Source of the DNA: Ruminococcus albus 7 = DSM 20455
GTDB lineage: Bacteria > Bacillota > Clostridia > Oscillospirales > Ruminococcaceae
Reading direction: 5' to 3'
DNA length: 32,000 bases
Assembly: GCF_000179635.2 (NCBI RefSeq)
Contig: NC_014825.1
Location: forward strand, 300,001-332,000
The notes below the pieces were generated by a model. It was not told the DNA's origin. It worked only from the letters and a program-made list of their open reading frames with translations, and searched no databases. The position numbers and the translations under genes are program-made. Below, piece by piece: positions 1,184 to 28,200 of this stretch. Within the stretch, counting starts at the first letter, position 1; each line of letters starts with the position of its first letter.

Positions 1184-1412
1184 CCTAGCGCGGGTACGCA
1201 ACACGTTACTAACATAGTGTGTACGGGCAGTTTGTTTCTCGGTGTCCGTTGTATGCTATGTTGAAACAGTAGTTTTCTCGCGCGGGTACGCAACACGTAA
1301 CCAACACAGTGTATATGGGCAGTTCGTTTCTCGGTGTCCGTTGTAAGCTATTTTGGAACAACAGTCCCCTAGTGCGGGCACGCAACACGTCACATACAGC
1401 GTTAGTATGGTA
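1184..1412 (+). repeat. tandem array (about 2.5 units, 92-nt period) of the intergenic repeat family, locus A
   Basis: The core GCGGG(T/C)ACGCAACACGT starts at 1190, 1282 and 1374, exactly 92 nt apart. The second core GGGCAGTT(T/C)GTTTCTCGGTGTCCGTTGTA occurs in units 1 and 2, and units 1 and 3 start with CCTAG. Confidence 0.9.
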
Positions 1413-1444
1413 ATACAATCCCCTGCAGCCGATGCCCAAAAAGC

Positions 1445-1490
1445 AACGCGCGCTGCCGATAATGACAACGCGCGTTTCTTTGTTATTTTA
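1445..1490. terminator. bidirectional intrinsic terminator between the DUF6291-like gene/repeat array and the amt-PII gene
   Basis: AACGCGCG (1445-1452) pairs with CGCGCGTT (1469-1476). A T-rich run (TTCTTTGTTATTTT) follows it and an A-run (CCAAAAAGC) precedes it. Confidence 0.55.
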
Positions 1491-3735: not shown

Positions 3736-5178
3736 ATGGGCGGTCTGCATGAGGAATGCGGCATAATAGGTATATTCGGGAAAGAACATCAGCCGTTGGC
3801 GGAAACGGTGTACTACGGGCTGTATGCCCTTCAGCACCGCGGTCAGGAGGGCTGCGGCATAGCTGTATGCGATGACGGTGTGATAACAGCCCACAAGGAC
3901 ACAGGTCTTGTGGGAGAGGTATTCGATCACAGGAGCCTTGCTGAACTCCCCTGCGGCACTATGGCGATAGGTCATGTAAGGTACTCCACCACAGGGGGCA
4001 ACGAGCGCAGGAACTGTCAGCCGATAGTAGTCAATCATCAGAAGGGGCGCATGGCGATAGCACACAACGGCAATCTTTCAAATGCGGCAGAACTGAGATC
4101 TGCACTGGAGCTTACAGGTGCCATATTCCACACCACATCGGACACTGAGACCATAGCTTACGAGATAACCAAGATGCGGCTTAAAAAGCCTTCCATAGAG
4201 GATGCTGTGCTGGGGACTATGGATATAATAGACGGTGCATACTCACTGGTGGTAATGTCACCTACCAAGCTGATAGCAGTGCGCGATCCCTACGGATACC
4301 GTCCCCTTTGCTACGGTACCATGCCTGACGGCGGTTATGCGGTGGCCTCCGAAAGCTGTGCGCTGACTGCCATCGGTGCTGAGTTTGTCAGGGATATAGA
4401 GCCGGGAGAGATGCTGATATTCTCAAATGACGGTATGCGTTCGGACAGATCGCACTGCGGCATCAAGCCAAAGCAGACCTGCATATTGGAGTACATATAC
4501 TTCGCAAGACCCGATTCGGAGATAGACGGTGTGAGCGTGCACAACGCAAGACTAAGGGCAGGGCGGATACTGGCTGAGGAAAGTCCTGCGGATGCGGATA
4601 TAGTTATAGGCGTGCCTGATTCGGGGCTTGATGCGGCACTGGGATTCTCACAGGCATCGGGCATACCCTACGGCATAGGGCTGATAAAGAACAAGTACAT
4701 AGGGCGAACCTTCATAGCGCCTACGCAGTCAACAAGGACGGACAAGGTGCGCATAAAGCTGGCAGCAGTCAGCGATACGGTCAAGGGCAAGCGTGTGGTA
4801 CTGGTGGATGACTCAATAGTTCGCGGCACCACGGGCGGACGAATAGTAGTGCTGCTGCGTGAGGCAGGGGCTAAGGAGATACATTTCCGTGTAAGTGCGC
4901 CTCCCTTCCTGCACCCTTGTTATTACGGCACTGATATAGACTCGGAGAAGGGTCTGATAGCAGATCATCACACACCCGAGGAGATAGCAGCCATGATGGG
5001 TGCAGACAGTCTGGGATATCTGCCTGTGGAAAGAGTAGACGAACTCAACTGCGGCGCAGGCTGCTGCAAGGCTTGCTTCAACGGAGAATACGGCACAGCC
5101 ATCCCCAAAGGCGCACACAAGGACAGGTATGAGATGAAGATATCCCTGACACGGGATGCCAATTCGCAGCTTACATAG
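3736..5178 (+). CDS. purF: amidophosphoribosyltransferase (glutamine PRPP amidotransferase)
   Basis: ORF 3703..5178 is trimmed to ATG 3736, which follows GGAGGG (3724-3729). The N-terminus MGGLHEECGIIGIFG carries the Ntn Cys. The PRTase motif VVLVDDSIVRGTT and the C-terminal Cys cluster (CYYGTD..CGAGCCKAC) are also present. Confidence 0.95.
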   Translation: MGGLHEECGIIGIFGKEHQPLAETVYYGLYALQHRGQEGCGIAVCDDGVITAHKDTGLVGEVFDHRSLAELPCGTMAIGHVRYSTTGGNERRNCQPIVVNHQKGRMAIAHNGNLSNAAELRSALELTGAIFHTTSDTETIAYEITKMRLKKPSIEDAVLGTMDIIDGAYSLVVMSPTKLIAVRDPYGYRPLCYGTMPDGGYAVASESCALTAIGAEFVRDIEPGEMLIFSNDGMRSDRSHCGIKPKQTCILEYIYFARPDSEIDGVSVHNARLRAGRILAEESPADADIVIGVPDSGLDAALGFSQASGIPYGIGLIKNKYIGRTFIAPTQSTRTDKVRIKLAAVSDTVKGKRVVLVDDSIVRGTTGGRIVVLLREAGAKEIHFRVSAPPFLHPCYYGTDIDSEKGLIADHHTPEEIAAMMGADSLGYLPVERVDELNCGAGCCKACFNGEYGTAIPKGAHKDRYEMKISLTRDANSQLT

Positions 5179-5276
5179 TGATGATGATATGTTTGCTTCT
5201 CGACAGCCTTTGTCAGCTATGACAAAAGATGCCGGCACTGGCGAAGTGACCTGTCAGCCAAAACAAAAGATACAGC

Positions 5277-5319
5277 AAAAACGCAGCTGCACCGGAATGT
5301 GCGGCTGCGTTTTATTTTC
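5277..5319. terminator. bidirectional intrinsic terminator shared by purF and the dnaJ end of the heat-shock operon
   Basis: ACGCAGC..GCTGCGT stem (5281-5310), flanked by AAAA upstream and TTTTATTTT downstream. Confidence 0.6.
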
Positions 5320-5380
5320 ATTATACATACAAGACCGGCTTATCTGACGATCGGTAGGTTCATTAATGTATGTCCTAATA

Positions 5381-5443
5381 CCCTCAAAGGCTGCCGAGAA
5401 ACAAACTGCCCGTCACATCAATAAACGTAACGTGCCGGACCTA
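5381..5443 (-). repeat. single partial unit of the ~92-nt repeat family, locus C, abutting the dnaJ stop codon
   Basis: Minus strand reads TAG-GTCCGGCACGTTACGTTTATTGATGTGACGGGCAGTTTGTTTCTCGGCAGCCTTTGAGGG. This matches the B-locus unit cores (..CGACACGTCAC..GACGGGCAGTTTGTTTCTCGGT.CC.TTT.A.G). Confidence 0.8.
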
Positions 5444-10226: not shown

Positions 10227-10253
10227 TTAGCACTCGCGGCTTTCGGGTGTTAG
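10227..10253. promoter_or_regulatory. second, degenerate CIRCE-like element overlapping the perfect one
   Basis: TTAGCACTC (10227-10235), a 9-nt spacer, then GGGTGTTAG (10245-10253). The right arm matches 6 of 9 positions of GAGTGCTAA. Confidence 0.4.
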
Positions 10254-10276
10254 CACTCATTCTCTTTGAGTGCTAA
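10250..10276. promoter_or_regulatory. CIRCE operator (HrcA binding site), perfect consensus
   Basis: TTAGCACTC (10250-10258), a 9-nt spacer, then GAGTGCTAA (10268-10276). Confidence 0.95.
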
Positions 10277-11408: not shown

Positions 11409-12827
11409 ATGCGTAAAACCAAGATAGTATGCACCATAGGTCCCGCTACGGATGACGAGAACATCCTCAGGGATATGATGAAGAACGGCATGGATGTTGC
11501 CCGTTTCAATTTTTCACATTCCGAGCATTCCATTCACCAGCAGAGATTTGAGACCATAACCCGTCTGCGCGACGAAATGGGACTTAATATAGCCACACTG
11601 ATGGACACAAAGGGTCCTGAGATAAGGCTCAGGGATTTCAAGGATCACAAGCCTGTGACGATCAATGACGGCGATATGTTCACCCTGACCACAAGAGATG
11701 TGGAAGGCGACAATACTATCTGTTCCATAACCTTCCCAAAACTGCCCCAGGATATCACCACAGGCACAAGGATACTCATAAACGACGGTGTGATCGAGCT
11801 GAAAGCCGTTAAGATAGATTCCACAGATATACAGTGCGAGGTCATACACGGCGGCGTGGTATCAGACCACAAGGGTATCAACGTACCGGGAGTTAAGCTT
11901 TCAATGCCCTATATATCCGATGCGGATATGGCTGACCTTGCCTTCGGTGCGAAGATGGGCTTTGATTTCATCGCGGCATCATTCGTAAGGACCGGTGCTG
12001 ACGTTACATATCTGAGAAAATTCACCCAGAGTCTCGGCTGGTTCAATCCGAGGATAATCGCAAAGATAGAGAACGCCGAGGGTGTTGAGAACATTGACGA
12101 GATACTTGAAGCCGCTGACGGCATAATGGTAGCAAGAGGCGACATGGGTGTTGAGATACCTTTCGAGAATATACCTGCAATACAGAAAGAGCTTATACAC
12201 AAGGCTTACAATGCAGGCAAGCAGGTCATCACTGCAACACAGATGCTGGAATCCATGATAAACAATCCCAGACCTACACGTGCGGAGATAACCGACGTAG
12301 CAAATGCTATATATGACGGAACTTCGGCAATAATGCTCTCGGGTGAGACAGCAGCAGGCAAATATCCTGTTGAGGTAGTAAAGACCATGAGCCTTATAGC
12401 TGAGACCACCGAGGGAGATATCGACTACGTGCGCCGTTTCCAGAAGCGTGATGATATCGACCACCCCAGTATAACAGACGCTATCTGCCACGCTACAGTC
12501 ACCACAGCCCACGACCTTAAAGCGGCTGCCATACTGACAGTTACCAAGAGTGGTGCTACAGCACGTATACTTTCAAAGTACAGACCCGATTGTCCCATAA
12601 TAGGACTGACCACTGACTCCGTTACCTGCCACCAGATGAATATGTCATGGGGCGTTCTTCCGGGTCTTGTTGATGAAATGGACAACACCGATGAGCTTAT
12701 CTCCCGCGCCATAAGAGTCGCACTGGAAAAGGGCTACATCAAGGAAGGTGACCTGGTAGTAATCACAGCAGGAGTACCCCTCGGTATAAGCGGCACAACC
12801 AACCTGATGAAAGTAGAACGCGCCTAG
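11409..12827 (+). CDS. pyk: pyruvate kinase
   Basis: MRKTKIVCTIGPA.., MVARGDMGVEIP and ESMI..PRPTRAE are present. At 472 aa it has no PEP-utilizer extension. AGGAG lies upstream of the ATG. Confidence 0.97.
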   Translation: MRKTKIVCTIGPATDDENILRDMMKNGMDVARFNFSHSEHSIHQQRFETITRLRDEMGLNIATLMDTKGPEIRLRDFKDHKPVTINDGDMFTLTTRDVEGDNTICSITFPKLPQDITTGTRILINDGVIELKAVKIDSTDIQCEVIHGGVVSDHKGINVPGVKLSMPYISDADMADLAFGAKMGFDFIAASFVRTGADVTYLRKFTQSLGWFNPRIIAKIENAEGVENIDEILEAADGIMVARGDMGVEIPFENIPAIQKELIHKAYNAGKQVITATQMLESMINNPRPTRAEITDVANAIYDGTSAIMLSGETAAGKYPVEVVKTMSLIAETTEGDIDYVRRFQKRDDIDHPSITDAICHATVTTAHDLKAAAILTVTKSGATARILSKYRPDCPIIGLTTDSVTCHQMNMSWGVLPGLVDEMDNTDELISRAIRVALEKGYIKEGDLVVITAGVPLGISGTTNLMKVERA

Positions 12828-13106
12828 CCCTCGCGCGGGCACGCAACACGTCACTTACAAAGCTAGTACGGTAAGTTTGTTTCTCGGTGCCCTTTGAAGC
12901 TTGCAAACAAACACAGCTGCCCTAGCCAGGGTCGCCGACACGTCACCAACATTGTTATGACGGGCAGTATGTTTCTCGGTGCCCTTTGAAGCTCGCAAAC
13001 AAACACAGCTGCCCTAGCCCGGGGCGCCGACACGTCACCAACATTGTTATGACGGGCAGTTTGTTTCTCGGTAGCCTTTTAAGCTTTGAGATCAATCGCA
13101 GCTGTC
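12823..13106 (+). repeat. tandem array (about 3 units, 92-nt period) of the intergenic repeat family, locus B
   Basis: ACACGTCAC occurs at 12846, 12938 and 13030. The core (G)GGCAGT(T/A)TGTTTCTCGGT(G/A)CC appears in each unit. CCTAG occurs at 12823, 12921 and 13013, and the first CCTAG contains the pyk TAG stop (12825-12827). Confidence 0.92.
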
Positions 13107-13148
13107 ATCGTGCGGACGTTCCCACAGCAGGAGTAAAAGAATACAAGT

Positions 13149-13208
13149 AAACTGCCAATGAAGCAGAGTGCGCTGTCGAGCCAAACCTTTAGCTTCATTG
13201 GCAGTTTT
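13149..13208 (+). terminator. intrinsic terminator downstream of pyk and the repeat array
   Basis: AAACTGCCAATGAAGC (13149-13164) pairs with GCTTCATTGGCAGTTT (13192-13207) as a 16-bp stem ending in a T-run. Confidence 0.65.
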
Positions 13209-13255
13209 GCATCTGTCTCATCCTGACAGCAGATATCCTGTTGCAGGATTCAGGG

Positions 13256-13284
13256 TTGACATTTCTGCTGTTTTGTTATATTAT
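13256..13284 (+). promoter_or_regulatory. sigma-A promoter for murT-gatD
   Basis: TTGACA (13256-13261), a 17-nt spacer, then TATTAT (13279-13284). Confidence 0.5.
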
Positions 13285-15524: not shown

Positions 15525-15695
15525 ATGTTCCATTTTTTCAGGAAAAGATCCGCAGATAATGAGCCTGCGCTGAAAAAGCGGATACAGGCTATGAAGTGCC
15601 GCAAGATCAATTTTGTGGATGATGATTTTGAGGGCTTGTGCAGAGATATGAAAACAGGCTGCAAGCCGCTTATGCGCCTGAAGCCTGTTAATTAG
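15525..15695 (+). pseudogene. 5' fragment (56 codons) of a small gene interrupted by the IS element
   Basis: AAGGAG lies 6 nt upstream of ATG 15525. The frame runs into a TAG created by the IS end (15693-15695). Confidence 0.7.
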
Positions 15696-17304
15696 TCTCT
15701 CCTCAACAAGCCTCTAAAATCCACGGCATACCGGCTGGCGATATGAGAAGCGAATATTTATCACTATTTTCCAGAAGCGTAAAAGCATCGCCGCCAGGCG
15801 GTCGATGTTCATTGCGATGACGCTGAGAACTATCGATGCTCTTGTTGTGTCTTCTCTTTTTGTGAGCAGCAGACCAAGACCGAATTTGCGCTTTGCAAGA
15901 CTGAACTTACGCTCCACTTCGATCCTGTCGGTATTATCTTTATATGCTGCCTTCTTTTCAGCCTTGCTGTCGGCGTCATTCTTCGGTCTTCCGAGTTTTT
16001 TGCCTGAAATACGTATGCCGTGACCGCTGCAAAACGAGATGTTTTCACGGTTGCGATATATCTGATCAACAAGAACTCGCTCCGGATAATGACCTGTGCG
16101 CTGCTTGTAGTTTTCAATTGCTGTTTTCAGAACTGCACTTTCGTTGTAAGCATTAAAGGATAGCTTCTCGATCCTGCACATCCCGGTCTCATCAACTGAC
16201 AGATCGAGCTTAGCTCCAAACTCAACAGGAGATTTTGCTTTACCTCTTACGATCGGTCGGATGTACGGCTGGCTGATGCTGACAATACGGTCTTCAACAG
16301 AATGAGTGTTGCTTTCAAACATATACCGCTGCTGATCGTAAACGGTCATGAGAATATCAAGAAGCTCCTTATCGGAAACGGACAGCACAACGCCGTTGTT
16401 TTCGATAAGATTATCGATATATCCAAGGTCACGGCGAATATATTGAAGCTGCTTTTTGATCGCTTTTCTGATCTTTTTCGCACCGCGCTTTCTGCATTTG
16501 GCAAGTGCAAGATAGTCTTTTCTTGCCTTTTGATGGTACATTCTCGGTCTGTAAAATCCGTATTTATCGGAGACTCTGCACAGCATATCTTCAAGCTTTT
16601 CACGAACTTCATTCAGCAGCTCAATGTCCTGAGGATACTTGATATTCTGCGGCGCACAGGTCGCATCAAGGATCAGTGTGCCAGAGTTTTCAGTTTTTTC
16701 TTCGGAATCATTTGCTGGATCTTGCTGATCGGGCTGACCTCCGTTTCCACTCACGTCATCAGAATCGTCATTGTCTTGCTGCGAGTTGTACTCGATGATC
16801 ATTTCATTGATCTCGTTGAGAACATCCTCCGATAGTCTTTTGCGGAATTCCACGAGAAGCGAAGGTACGAACGGAATCTTATCCTCATATCCGGGCAGCC
16901 CGATGAAATACTGGTAGTACGGGTTCTCTCTGATCTGTTCGACGAGTTCTTCGTCCGGATAATGATATTGCTTCTGTATCAACAGCGAACCGAGTGCCAT
17001 GCGGAGAGGCTTTGCGGGCATACCGGTATGGCTCGGGAACAGCCTGGCATATTCAGCTTCAATTGTTTCCCAAGGGATCATTTCTGCTTTCTTTACCCAG
17101 CGGTTATCCGGGTTCATTTGCAAACCAAGCGGTTGATTGAAATCTGTGAATGAAATCTGTTTTTCTTTCTTGAACTTATACATGGCATCCTCCGAAGTGC
17201 AAGCTTTTTTCTCGTTTTGATTACTTTTTCTTGCACTTCTATTATACCATATTGGGTTGGATTTGTCGATATTTCGTCGCTTTATTGCTGTGTGAGGAGA
17301 GACT
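15694..17304 (-). mobile_element. IS element, IS5/IS1182-type, 1611 bp, with an AATT target duplication
   Basis: The terminal inverted repeat AGTCTCTCCTCA (15694-15705) matches TGAGGAGAGACT (17293-17304), with partial matches further in. AATT lies on both sides (15690-15693 and 17305-17308). A single transposase ORF lies inside. Confidence 0.85.
15714..17183 (-). CDS. IS5/IS1182-family DDE transposase (DUF772 N-terminal domain)
   Basis: 489 aa with GGAGG upstream. It has ..PLRMALGSLLIQKQYHYPDEELVEQIRENPYYQYFIGL.. (DUF772-like), LILDATCAP, VLVDQIYRN, and ERKFSLAKRKFGLGLLLTK..SIVLSVIAMN at the C-terminus. Confidence 0.88.
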   Translation of the reverse strand: MYKFKKEKQISFTDFNQPLGLQMNPDNRWVKKAEMIPWETIEAEYARLFPSHTGMPAKPLRMALGSLLIQKQYHYPDEELVEQIRENPYYQYFIGLPGYEDKIPFVPSLLVEFRKRLSEDVLNEINEMIIEYNSQQDNDDSDDVSGNGGQPDQQDPANDSEEKTENSGTLILDATCAPQNIKYPQDIELLNEVREKLEDMLCRVSDKYGFYRPRMYHQKARKDYLALAKCRKRGAKKIRKAIKKQLQYIRRDLGYIDNLIENNGVVLSVSDKELLDILMTVYDQQRYMFESNTHSVEDRIVSISQPYIRPIVRGKAKSPVEFGAKLDLSVDETGMCRIEKLSFNAYNESAVLKTAIENYKQRTGHYPERVLVDQIYRNRENISFCSGHGIRISGKKLGRPKNDADSKAEKKAAYKDNTDRIEVERKFSLAKRKFGLGLLLTKREDTTRASIVLSVIAMNIDRLAAMLLRFWKIVINIRFSYRQPVCRGF

Positions 17305-20177: not shown

Positions 20178-20313
20178 TGGTTATCCCGCTGACACCCACA
20201 ATTGATCGGTGTTATATCGGAACTTGAAATATTTGGCGGGAGGGAAGGATACCTACGACACTATTTTCCCTTGTTATATAGCACTTTGTATTGGTGTGCT
20301 AAAGGGATAACCA
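20178..20313 (+). mobile_element. MITE-like element, copy A (136 bp), with imperfect terminal inverted repeats and TA flanks
   Basis: It starts TGGTTATCCCGCTGACACC (20178..) and ends ..GGTGTGCTAAAGGGATAACCA (..20313). TA lies on both flanks (20176-20177 and 20314-20315). There is no ORF, and a homologous copy lies at 27304-27460. Confidence 0.7.
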
Positions 20314-20437
20314 TAAAAATATGGTCTACCCGACAACATCATACCGTTCGGGTATCATCAATTATATAATTAAAACAAAAATTCCAAGTCTTATGTGACA
20401 GCATACCGCTATATAGTTGAAATTTATGAGACATCTA

Positions 20438-20551: not shown

Positions 20552-23500
20552 ATGATGAAAAGCAAAAGAATAGTCAGTGCCATAACAGCACTGATGCTCA
20601 CAGCCTCACTTATGGCAGGCTGCAGCGACAGAGCTGCGGACGAAAGTTCACAGGCAGCAGATACAGCTTCGTCAGCTGCACCGTCGGGTAACAAGGACAC
20701 TGATAGTGATACCACAGGAGATGAAACAACGTCCGACAGTGAGACTACCGACAGCGAAACGACAGACGATGAAAACGGTTTGAATGTTATAGACCTATCA
20801 GGTGAAGGCACCATAGCTGACAACATAAGACTGACTTCCCTTTCCGCTGTTGAAAGAGGTGCATTCAGAGAAACACCTTCAACAAGGATAAACGTAGGTA
20901 CCTCAGCCAAGGCAAGAAAATGGTCCGATAAAAAGAAAGAGGAAAAGAAAAAGCTGACACTGATGGTATACATGGTCGGTTCTGACCTGGAAAGCAAACA
21001 GGCGCAGAAAGCCGCTACCATAGATATCGGTGAGATGATATACAGCGGTCTTGATGACAAGGATGTAAACCTTGTGATATACTGCGGCGGTGCACAGACA
21101 TGGTGGATACCCGGATATCCGGCAGGCAAGAATGCTTATATAGAGTACAAGTCCAAGGACTCCGATATACAGGGCGACAACGGTGCAGGTATAAATATCT
21201 ATGAGACAGATAAAAAGAATATGGGCAAGGCTGATACCTTCGGCGCATTCCTCAAAGATGTTCCCGAGAAATATCCTGCAGATGACTATGCACTGATATG
21301 CTGGGACCACGGCGGCGGACCGGTGCTTGGCTACGGCAGCGACGAACTGAACGTTGACAGCAAGACGAAACTTGGTGACAGCCTTACCATAGCTGAGATG
21401 AAGGACGCACTTGACAAATCCGATTTCAAGAAAAACAAGCTGAAATTCGTGGGCTTTGATGCCTGTGTAATGTCATCGATCGAGATAGCTGACCTCTGGC
21501 AGGACTATGCTGAATACCTTGTGGCTTCTGCAGATTCCGAACCTGGCTGCGGCTGGAACTATGAGTTCCTCAAGGATGTAAAGGGCGATACCGATACCAC
21601 CAAGATATGCAAGGGCATAATAAAGACCTACTTCGATTATCTTTCCAAGATCAGTTCAAGCTGCTATATCTCCGATGCCACCCTCGCAGCCTTTGACCTT
21701 TCAAAGACTGACAGCGTAAAGGAAGCTGTCGGCGGTGTATGCAAGGCAATGAACGATGACCTGAAGAACGGTGACAAGAAGTCATACGAGAAGTTCCTTG
21801 ACGGTGTACACAGCTACGCAAGCTTTGACCTGGCTGACCTGGGTACTATGGTAACTTCCCTTTCGGGCTCTTATGCTGATGAAACAAAGGAGCTGAAAAG
21901 TGCCATAAACGATATGGTGATAGACGGCACTACCACTATCAGCAACACCTGCGGAATGTCAGTATATTTCCCGCTTTCAAACAGCACCGCAGATCTGGAG
22001 ACCAGCCTTATAATACTGAAGATCCTGGGCGGCGGCGACTACATAAAGAACGATCCGCTCAACTCAGATTACCATGCACTGATGAGTACTCTGCTGAGCA
22101 ATACTGATGTAGATGTGGGAACACCTTCATCAAAGCCAGACAGCAGTTCCTCAAAGAAGGATGAAAAATCATCCTCAAAGGCTGAGTCAAGCTCCTCAAA
22201 GAAGGACGAAAAATCATCCTCAAAGGCTGAGTCAAGCTCCTCAAAGAAGGACGAAAAATCATCTTCAAAGGCTGAGTCAAGCTCCTCAAAGAAGGACGAA
22301 AAATCATCCTCAAAGGCTGAGTCAAGTTCCTCAAAGAAGGATGAAAAGTCGTCCTCAAAGGCTGAGTCAAGTTCCTCAAAGAAGGATGAAAGCTCATCAA
22401 AGCCCGATAACAACGGAAACTCATCTGCATCGGCATCCGCACTCGATAAGCTGGATCTGACAGTGGTTGAAAAGGGTGCAAAGTCCTCCGATAAGGAATT
22501 CAAGGACGACGGCTGTGCCTACTCAAAACTGCCCAAGGAAGAACTTGCCAATATCCGCGGCGTTTACTACACAGTACTCAAAAACGTGTCCATGGACGAA
22601 AAGAAAAAGAGCTGGGCACCTTATGTACTTTATATACCTGCCGAGGTGGATAACAAAGGCATAGCAAAAATGGATCTCGACCCGACCATCATCGGCGTTG
22701 TTACCGATAAGGATGCAGAGCCTAATATCTGTCTTACCAAGTATCTGGGTGACGGAAATTACCGTTCATCCGGTACACTCAGTTCTACCCGTGATCTTGC
22801 CGATGAGTATCTCAGAGTAAATATACAGTCTCACGTTGACGAAAAAGGCAATTCAGCTATCACAGGCGTTACCTCAAATCAGAACACAGACAGCGGCGTA
22901 CCTATAGCTTCCAAGGACGATATCGACCTTAACGAGTGGCTGTCATTCAGTTCACCTGTCACAGGCTATGCACCCGATCCCAAGAACCCCCGCAAGCATT
23001 TCAGCGAGGGTACTGCCGATACGCTCGGCGCTGCATTCAGCCTTCTTGGCGATAACTTCGATGTCAAAGCCTGCAAGCCCTCTGATATACCGGGCGAATA
23101 CGCAATACAGATGAGCGTGTTCACCATCGACGGCAAAGAGTACTGCAGCAACATCGGCAGCTGGAACATAAAGGACGGAAACACTGAAAAGCTGAAAGAA
23201 GCAAAGGTGGATAAGGGCGTACTTAAATTTGCCGTACACGATGACTACGCTGAACTTGTAAAGTTCGAGAAATCAGGAAAGGAGGAGCCCAAAAAGCTCA
23301 CCGTTCCCGACAAGTTTGAAGGCAAGAAGGTAACAACTGTCCGCGACGGTGCGTTCTCAGGCACAAGCCCCGAGGAGATAGTATTCCCCGACAGCGTTGA
23401 GTACATAGGCTATCTTTCTTCGGGTTCTTCCGCAACAAAGAAAGTAACTCTCCCCAAAAAGCTCAAGAGCATACCCGATGAGATGTTCAGCTATTATACT

Positions 23501-28047: not shown

Positions 28048-28073
28048 CTTGTGGTGTGTTAAGGGGATAACCA
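28048..28073 (+). repeat. solo terminus of the MITE-like family
   Basis: TTGTGGTGTGTTAAGGGGATAACCA is followed by TA. It matches the right end of copy A and, when inverted, the 27304 end of copy B. Confidence 0.6.
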
Positions 28074-28200
28074 TAAATTCTTATGATACTTTTATAACTG
28101 ACCCTCATGGAAGAATGAATGAAGAGCATCGTAGATGTAATGTCTTACATAGCCAAAACGTTGTGTCTTTCCCGATGAAACCGTGATCACCTTCGGGTTC

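Follow-up and report, generated by a model that had tools for sequence, protein, structure and literature searches.

A 92-nt tandem repeat at gene 3' ends of Ruminococcus albus 7, probably a young minisatellite family of the MIRU/STAR type

Among the short repeats described in bacteria, the MIRU elements measure 40–100 bp, occupy 40–50 loci, are transcribed and overlap adjacent genes with their ends (PMC3184786). The STAR elements combine a conserved motif with spacers into arrays that expand and contract, possess a distinct final 'anchor' spacer and are found in 3' untranslated regions (UTRs) (PMC3532100, PMC7049690). Here, we describe a 92-nt repeat that lies behind the pyruvate kinase gene pyk and at three further loci of Ruminococcus albus 7 = DSM 20455, within a stretch of 32,000 nt (assembly GCF_000179635.2, contig NC_014825.1, positions 300,001–332,000 of the forward strand) that is hereafter called the window and whose own numbering is used throughout. 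The repeat adds to a type of bacterial minisatellite that is already known and is not a new RNA or system. We consider it probable that it constitutes a young interspersed family that is restricted to the lineage formed by strain 7 and near relatives from the rumen, resides at gene 3' ends and resembles MIRU and STAR.

The pyk array (12830–13106, plus strand) consists of three head-to-tail units located between the pyk stop codon and the terminator (Table 1). Tandem Repeats Finder reported it at 12874–13086 with a period of 92, 2.3 copies, 92% matches, no indels and a score of 377, and ACACGTCAC was found exactly at 12846, 12938 and 13030, which bears out the three 92-nt units that a first-pass annotation of the window had recorded at these positions. 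The second core, GGGCAGTTTGTTTCTCGGTG, was matched six times in the window when up to three mismatches were allowed, compared with 0.00 times expected from shuffles. The placement of the array between the stop codon and a terminator, also part of the first-pass annotation, was confirmed by the hairpin downstream, and because of this placement the array is most likely 3' UTR, presumably co-transcribed with pyk, as far as the sequence allows one to judge. Each unit had further been said to begin with CCTAG; in register, this applies to units 2 and 3 (CCCTAG) but not to unit 1 (CCCTCG), and the CCTAG at 12823 belongs to the pyk stop, 7 nt upstream of the register. The position of this stop and the C-terminus ...VERA of the encoded protein (Pyk; identical to ADU24371.1/WP_013483908.1 of R. 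albus 7, a strain also designated ATCC 27210) are common to related species that lack the repeat, so the stop is ancestral. The draft assembly GCA_000621285.1 contains the same DNA, as do scaffolds from sheep-rumen metagenomes.

Table 1. Repeat units, associated genes and transcription signals in the window
Feature	Position	Strand	Description	Basis
Array A, two full units	1185-1368	+		Tandem Repeats Finder, period 92, score 297; nhmmer
Array A, third unit	1369-1413	+	First half only (core 1 and spacer)	nhmmer, E = 1.7e-7
Bidirectional terminator hairpin	1445-1476		Separates the DUF6291 gene plus array A (+) from the converging amt (-)	
purF-end unit	5146-5233	+	Degenerate, single	nhmmer, E = 2.7e-7
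Bidirectional terminator	5278-5313		Between purF (+) and dnaJ (-); parts two opposed repeat copies	
dnaJ unit	5366-5443	-	Single, flush with the dnaJ stop; 3'-truncated in this strain	nhmmer, E = 2.8e-9
pyk open reading frame	11409-12827	+	Pyruvate kinase	Pfam PK and PK_C
pyk stop codon	12825-12827	+	TAG; unit 1 begins 2 nt downstream	
pyk unit 1	12830-12921	+	Starts with CTCG; spacer variant CTTACAAAGCTAGTACGGTAAG	nhmmer, E = 5e-26
pyk unit 2	12922-13013	+	Internal type, ends in ...GCAAACAAACACAGCTGCC	In-register repeat search and nhmmer
pyk terminal 'anchor' unit	13014-13106	+	93 nt, ends in ...GAGATCAATCGCAGCTGTC	In-register repeat search; strain comparison
pyk terminator	13147-13210	+	Intrinsic-terminator-like hairpin, followed by UUUUG; likely end of the pyk transcript	-32.7 kcal/mol, z = -5.6
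murT promoter-like site	13256-13284		Past the pyk terminator	Promoter scan, 11/12 matches

The unit is non-coding and comprises two conserved cores, (C)CTAG-CGCGGG-ACG-ACACGTCAC and GGGCAG-TTTGTTTCTCGG-TG-CC-TTTG, with more variable spacers between them; it contains neither a palindrome nor terminal inverted repeats. Across 20 distinct aligned units, the core GTTTCTCGG was invariant, and columns 26–40 and 68–88 were variable. Within the 32 kb, TTTGTTTCTCGG occurs six times, compared with 0.55 times expected, each time inside a unit. All units carry stops in all three sense frames and the period is not a multiple of three. A search of units and arrays for open reading frames (ORFs) yielded none that starts with ATG and none that is credible, in agreement with the earlier statement that the array carries no ORF.

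A profile built for nhmmer solely from five full units (three from pyk and two from array A, which lies behind a DUF6291 gene) added three members within the window, namely the third unit of array A, the dnaJ unit and the purF-end unit, and found none between 13.1 and 32 kb. The two full units of array A are 84% identical to each other and 63–68% identical to those of pyk. The first-pass annotation had placed related arrays at 1184–1412 and 5381–5443, in the same order of stop codon, repeat and terminator. Their locations proved right (1185–1413 and, on the minus strand, ~5366–5443), but array A is not directly behind a stop codon: it begins 125 nt past the stop of the DUF6291 gene, in the same orientation, adjoins no ORF end and is preceded by a TGA that terminates no ORF. 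The fourth locus, which is the degenerate copy at the purF end, was absent from that list. At all four loci, the copy is in sense orientation with respect to the gene whose stop lies upstream, and it is found on that gene's side of the terminator.

Two stop codons are provided by the repeat itself. That of dnaJ, a TAG at 5441–5443, is the 5' TAG of the dnaJ unit, and it is TAA in every unit-free lineage examined. The C-terminus of PurF was resolved with a protein search against 90% clusters, a search against 50%-identity representatives being too coarse: the relatives comprise 470–475 residues and end in ...KDRYEMKLS plus 2–6 residues, and PurF of strain 7 comprises 480 residues and ends in ...KDRYEMKIS-LTRDANSQLT. 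The ten final codons (LTRDANSQLT) and the stop stem from the first 32 nt of the unit and start at the unit boundary (5146/5147). The stop itself, a TAG at 5176–5178, is the unit-internal ACATAGTG, which is also found, there without function, in the first unit of array A. Since the new tail begins exactly at the start of the unit alignment and the stop is unit-internal, the unit has, judging from these alignments, taken the place of the final codons of purF and of its stop. A copy in or at an ORF end would cost at most a short C-terminal tail because of the stops in all three sense frames.

The arrays differ between strains. Assemblies that encode identical Pyk proteins have 1, 2, 3, 4 or at least 5 units behind pyk, so the pyk array is a variable-number tandem repeat (VNTR). 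In every strain examined, the last pyk unit ends in ...GAGATCAATCGCAGCTGTC, as opposed to ...GCAAACAAACACAGCTGCC for the internal units, and this terminal unit is the most diverged. The segments of the units come in two variants each (e.g., the spacers CCAACATTGTTATGACGGGCAG and CTTACAAAGCTAGTACGGTAAG), which are shuffled among units and strains to yield mosaics. Slippage during replication or unequal homologous recombination would thus appear to cause the changes in copy number. All strain-7-like assemblies carry the dnaJ copy, also across a synteny break with a different downstream neighbour; in sister strains with such a changed neighbour, its 3' end is complete (...ACATAGCTGTC). In the metagenome-assembled genome (MAG) GCA_024689805.1, only the first 13 nt of array A (CCCTAGCGCGGGTA) remain, and a 1.3-kb AT-rich, gene-bearing segment takes the place of the rest. 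This replacement segment (L102, 7990–9440) encodes a 343-aa protein of unknown function. The 3' end of the dnaJ unit is likewise a site of rearrangement breakpoints.

Comparison of the pyk 3' regions across sister strains, which the first-pass annotation had recommended, revealed both presence and absence of the array. R. albus AD2013, SY3 and the strain-8 type possess syntenic hrcA-grpE-dnaK-dnaJ and pyk, with no unit in the 10 kb to either side; in these, a terminator begins 8–20 nt past the pyk stop (TAG, TAA or TGA), and dnaJ ends in TAA. The pyk site is empty too in a lineage with 94%-identical Pyk, and no units were found in Ruminococcus species with 86–90% identical Pyk. Scans for the exact core pattern over 185,579 species genomes (one for each species), the metagenomes of JGI and IMG/VR returned single matches at chance level, the sole true further match being one pyk locus (L036); according to nhmmer, the others cover the pattern alone. 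A blastn search of the array against plasmid and phage collections gave no match, and a protein search with its antisense translation returned only two ORFs, both from the pyk locus. Since sister lineages, other species and public collections lack copies, the family is best read as a recent gain of the strain-7 lineage, and since the sister lineages have empty sites, it would have reached its loci by insertion. The strain-7-type sequence read amounted to ~74 kb and comprised the window, its extensions and one other contig end.

Two observations concern these same sites and contigs. In strain 7, the terminator is preceded by TAAAAGAATACAAG, which is similar to TAAAATATCAAG behind the SY3 stop and may be a leftover of the ancestral 3' UTR; as a target duplication, the resemblance is too weak. 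The longest of the contigs with identical Pyk spans 352,646 bp and none exceeds 1 Mb, and the syntenic region of AD2013 is found on a 3.8-Mb contig. The former length would match that of the R. albus 7 megaplasmid pRUMAL02, in which case dnaK, pyk and purF would reside on a replicon other than the main chromosome.

Of the described families, MIRU is the closest in behaviour. Its units form direct tandem arrays at dispersed non-coding loci, are oriented and co-transcribed with the flanking genes, overlap the stop of the neighbour with their ends, vary in copy number between strains and have empty sites in related genomes (PMC3184786). Correspondingly, the present repeat has a 92-nt period without indels, is found as 1 to at least 5 units and has all four copies in the orientation of the gene upstream; the 5' end of the dnaJ unit contains the dnaJ stop, the purF stop lies inside its unit and the pyk stop is found 2 nt upstream. 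The two families differ in that they have no sequence relation and belong to different phyla, so that the likeness is one of behaviour and not of homology. Moreover, MIRU elements are located between operon cistrons and contain small ORFs through which translation is coupled, whereas here stops are present in every frame and the arrays precede terminators. Imperfect inverted repeats and 4-nt direct repeats belong to the description of MIRU, but the present repeat shows neither. As to dispersal, MIRU occupies tens of loci per genome; for the present repeat, four were found within 13 kb in the ~74 kb read.

With the STAR/SIRU elements of Staphylococcus, the repeat has in common the combination of a core with variable, locus-specific spacers, the tandem arrangement and the intergenic position, including 3' UTRs (PMC3532100, PMC7049690). 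The species- or lineage-specific distribution is similar as well, and the constant terminal unit matches the behaviour of the STAR anchor (PMC3532100). However, STAR has a 14-nt GC-rich core, ~40-nt spacers and a period of ~55, compared with two cores per 92-nt unit here; neither a stop-flush position nor a sense orientation has been reported for it, and there is no sequence similarity. The STAR consensus TNTGTTGNGGCCC is absent from the units, and GGCC is nearly absent from the window. This tetranucleotide was observed six times, compared with 89.5 times expected, and CCGG 46 times, compared with 120, a depletion that suggests restriction-site avoidance.

More distant are the BOX elements of Streptococcus pneumoniae, which are likewise modular intergenic repeats with a copy-variable internal module and are transcribed with their neighbours (PMC3184786); they differ in that their A, B and C modules have stable stem-loops and are thought to be mobilised in the manner of miniature inverted-repeat transposable elements (MITEs), whereas the units analysed here are without significant structure. 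Elements of the REP/BIME, ERIC and MITE types are also short and non-coding, accumulate between stops and terminators and can fuse to ORF ends, but they are imperfect palindromes or have terminal inverted repeats, and in the case of MITEs also target duplications, features that were tested here and found to be absent. The view that the array does not resemble CRISPR, REP/BIME or any RNA family is therefore upheld by the absence of a palindrome, of cas genes and of any Rfam match. A CRISPR array was rejected as a candidate because the 'spacers' are two or three related variants common to units and strains and no cas domains are encoded in the window.

These findings can be combined into a simple scheme. 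A unit would enter the 3' end of a gene by insertion in sense orientation, between the stop and the terminator or overlapping them. After insertion, slippage or unequal recombination would shift the length of the array, which would give rise to the VNTR, the mosaic units and the diverged terminal 'anchor'. The effect would be neutral or mild, in that the 3' UTRs of pyk, dnaJ and purF would become longer and variable, and the repeat as such appears to be nearly neutral. Several points weigh against this reading. First, the GTTTCTCGG core and its flanks (9–20 nt) are almost invariant between loci that are otherwise 63–68% identical, which hints at a constraint beyond pure neutrality. Second, array A adjoins no stop codon. 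Third, we infer transcription through the arrays solely from the positions of the terminators. Fourth, all four loci are found within 13 kb, with no unit in ~42 kb of further source-genome sequence, including the ~10 kb of new sequence reached via a multi-copy insertion sequence (IS) transposase. Finally, a sense orientation of four copies out of four would by itself arise by chance in about 1 of 16 cases. Owing to the near-invariance of TTTGTTTCTCGG, two minority readings retain some weight, namely that the repeat is a mobile element with TAG as its target and that it serves as a platform for a sequence-specific factor.

According to the former of these, which we regard as unlikely, the repeat would be a non-autonomous mobile element that homes in sense orientation to TAG or CTAG at stops, with arrays growing on the stop side and the oldest unit last. 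This is akin to the proposal of the first-pass annotation, namely a miniature element with CTAG as its insertion site and with re-insertion into the duplication that it had itself created. The clean empty sites of the sister lineages at pyk and dnaJ speak for mobility, as does the fact that at three of the four loci the repeat is flush with the stop or replaces it. The stop is TAG in all three cases and, for dnaJ, TAA wherever the unit is absent. In addition, CTAG is depleted in the window (8 observed, 30.7 expected) and six of these eight sites lie inside the arrays, and the terminal unit is the most diverged, as polar growth predicts. However, TAG is common as a stop (9 of the 23 genes in the window), so three TAG stops out of three are weak evidence when taken alone (p ~0.06). 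The units have no terminal inverted repeats, their ends are not complementary and no direct repeat flanks any array. The 3' boundaries read ...GCTGTC/ATCG and ...GCTGTC/CTTG (the slash marks the boundary), as compared with CTAG at the 5' end, so that neither CTAG nor any other duplication is present on that side. Unit 1 of multi-unit pyk alleles starts with CTCG, and array A follows the TGA that ends no ORF. No transposase is linked to the repeat, and the only IS of the window is unrelated to the unit; derivation as a MITE from this IS (15.6–17.3 kb) was discarded because its ends share nothing with the unit. Lastly, the mosaic units reveal active recombination within arrays, and the copy-number differences between strains fit slippage or unequal recombination equally well as re-insertion at CTAG. 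Support for the earlier proposal is circumstantial.

The second minority reading, which is more doubtful still, holds that TTTGTTTCTCGG acts in cis as the platform for a sequence-specific factor, either a protein that binds DNA or RNA or a base-pairing RNA, and that copy number tunes the upstream gene. In its favour, the core is nearly invariant among loci that have otherwise diverged and is found nowhere else in the 32 kb, and the lack of structure would suit recognition of a linear sequence. On the other hand, no candidate factor is known, other R. albus lineages express the same genes without the family and the core is degenerate in the purF copy. Furthermore, recent spread combined with gene conversion could also account for the uneven conservation. 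The boldest form of these two readings is similarly doubtful. It would make the repeat a new non-autonomous element that homes to ORF 3' ends (TAG) in sense orientation, brings stops in all frames and lacks inverted repeats, hairpins and target duplication, and/or one whose core recruits a factor, with copy number tuning pyk, dnaJ and purF. If the part on 3'-end homing were true, it would entail an undescribed insertion mechanism tied to stop codons or translation termination.

A structured 3'-UTR RNA, in the form of a REP-like exonuclease barrier or a small RNA derived from the 3' UTR, is very improbable. The first-pass annotation had put forward both options, and the location between stop and terminator, as well as local complementarity in some units (GGGCA/TGCCC and GTTTGTTT/AAACAAAC), would be compatible with them. 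Yet, compared with dinucleotide shuffles, the arrays show no better folding (z = -1.8 and -1.2 on the two strands of the pyk array, +0.5 for array A), and the same is true of single units in four phases and on both strands (z from -1.3 to +1.4). RNAalifold gave -1.6 kcal/mol on the plus strand and -2.8 kcal/mol on the minus strand for 17 distinct units. The pairings of TGTTT with AAACA and of GGGCAG with CTGCCC pointed out in the first-pass annotation do exist in pyk units 1 and 2, but they are absent from the terminal unit and the dnaJ copy and are inconsistent in array A. Over the alignment, 78.7% of the cells of these helices are paired, compared with 78.5% after shuffling, and only two cells are compensatory, which means no covariation. 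No match to Rfam reached the gathering threshold over the 32 kb, and at the locus itself a search up to E = 10 returned two chance microRNA matches (E = 4.5 and 9.4). The idea of a structured RNA, RNase barrier or small RNA is thus not supported by folding or covariation. A C-rich tract of the Rho-utilisation type was also considered and rejected since there is no marked excess of C over G.

An assembly artefact or chance repeat can be set aside as practically negligible, for although short-read (Logan) contigs break within the pyk array, the same arrays recur in independent assemblies of isolates, MAGs and metagenomes, their copy variants being coherent, and the chance expectation is zero.

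Other repeats were encountered along the way. A second, unrelated family is represented by a MITE-like element of ~140 nt at 20180–20317, with terminal inverted repeats of ~22 nt (GTTATCCCGCTGACACCCACAA ... TTGGTGTGCTAAAGGGATAAC), and by a partial copy at 28052–28077; in the lineage whose Pyk is 94% identical, a related element bounded by long inverted repeats lies behind pyk (L100, 2040–2322). In related Ruminococcus species, different intergenic repeats occupy the region downstream of pyk (L082, 11420–11900; L084, 11420–11700), with a CTCTTACCTCTTACTTCT-type motif common to two species and, in L082, also a duplicated TACGCTGCGCGAACCTTG... segment. Gene 3' regions in Ruminococcus seem to collect lineage-specific repeats.

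The IS of the window (15600–17300) encodes a 489-aa transposase (DUF772, DDE_Tnp_1_2) and has a 17-nt inverted repeat at its ends. It interrupts a small ORF between the GATase_3 and endonuclease V genes, so that a 56-aa ORF is called on both flanks; sister strains without the IS have an intact 121-aa ORF at that site, and draft-assembly contigs break at the IS. Upstream of hrcA, a perfect CIRCE inverted repeat is present at 10250–10276 (TTAGCACTC-N9-GAGTGCTAA), as expected for an hrcA-grpE-dnaK-dnaJ operon. Two repeats are located within genes. An in-frame tandem repeat of 45 nt (15 residues) spans 22148–22398 with 5.6 copies, in a gene for a 1208-aa surface protein (Peptidase_C11/LRR_5), and its copy number may also vary, the product in the draft assembly comprising 1192 residues. 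At 526–611, the hexamer GATAAA is repeated 14 times within the DUF6291 gene and encodes an Asp/Lys-rich stretch.

With respect to the biology of R. albus, the repeat was gained very recently, as it is present in one lineage of the species and has syntenic empty sites in the sisters. Since then, core genes have had their 3' ends reshaped by it: the pyk 3' UTR has grown by 92 to >460 nt, the stop codon of dnaJ has changed and the last residues of PurF have been rewritten. The arrays are ready-made VNTR markers for the typing of R. albus 7-like strains in rumen metagenomes, and they are the cause of the breaks after pyk in short-read assemblies. If the stop-flush, sense-only placement holds genome-wide, it would reflect a rule of insertion or selection unlike that of the known palindromic repeat families.

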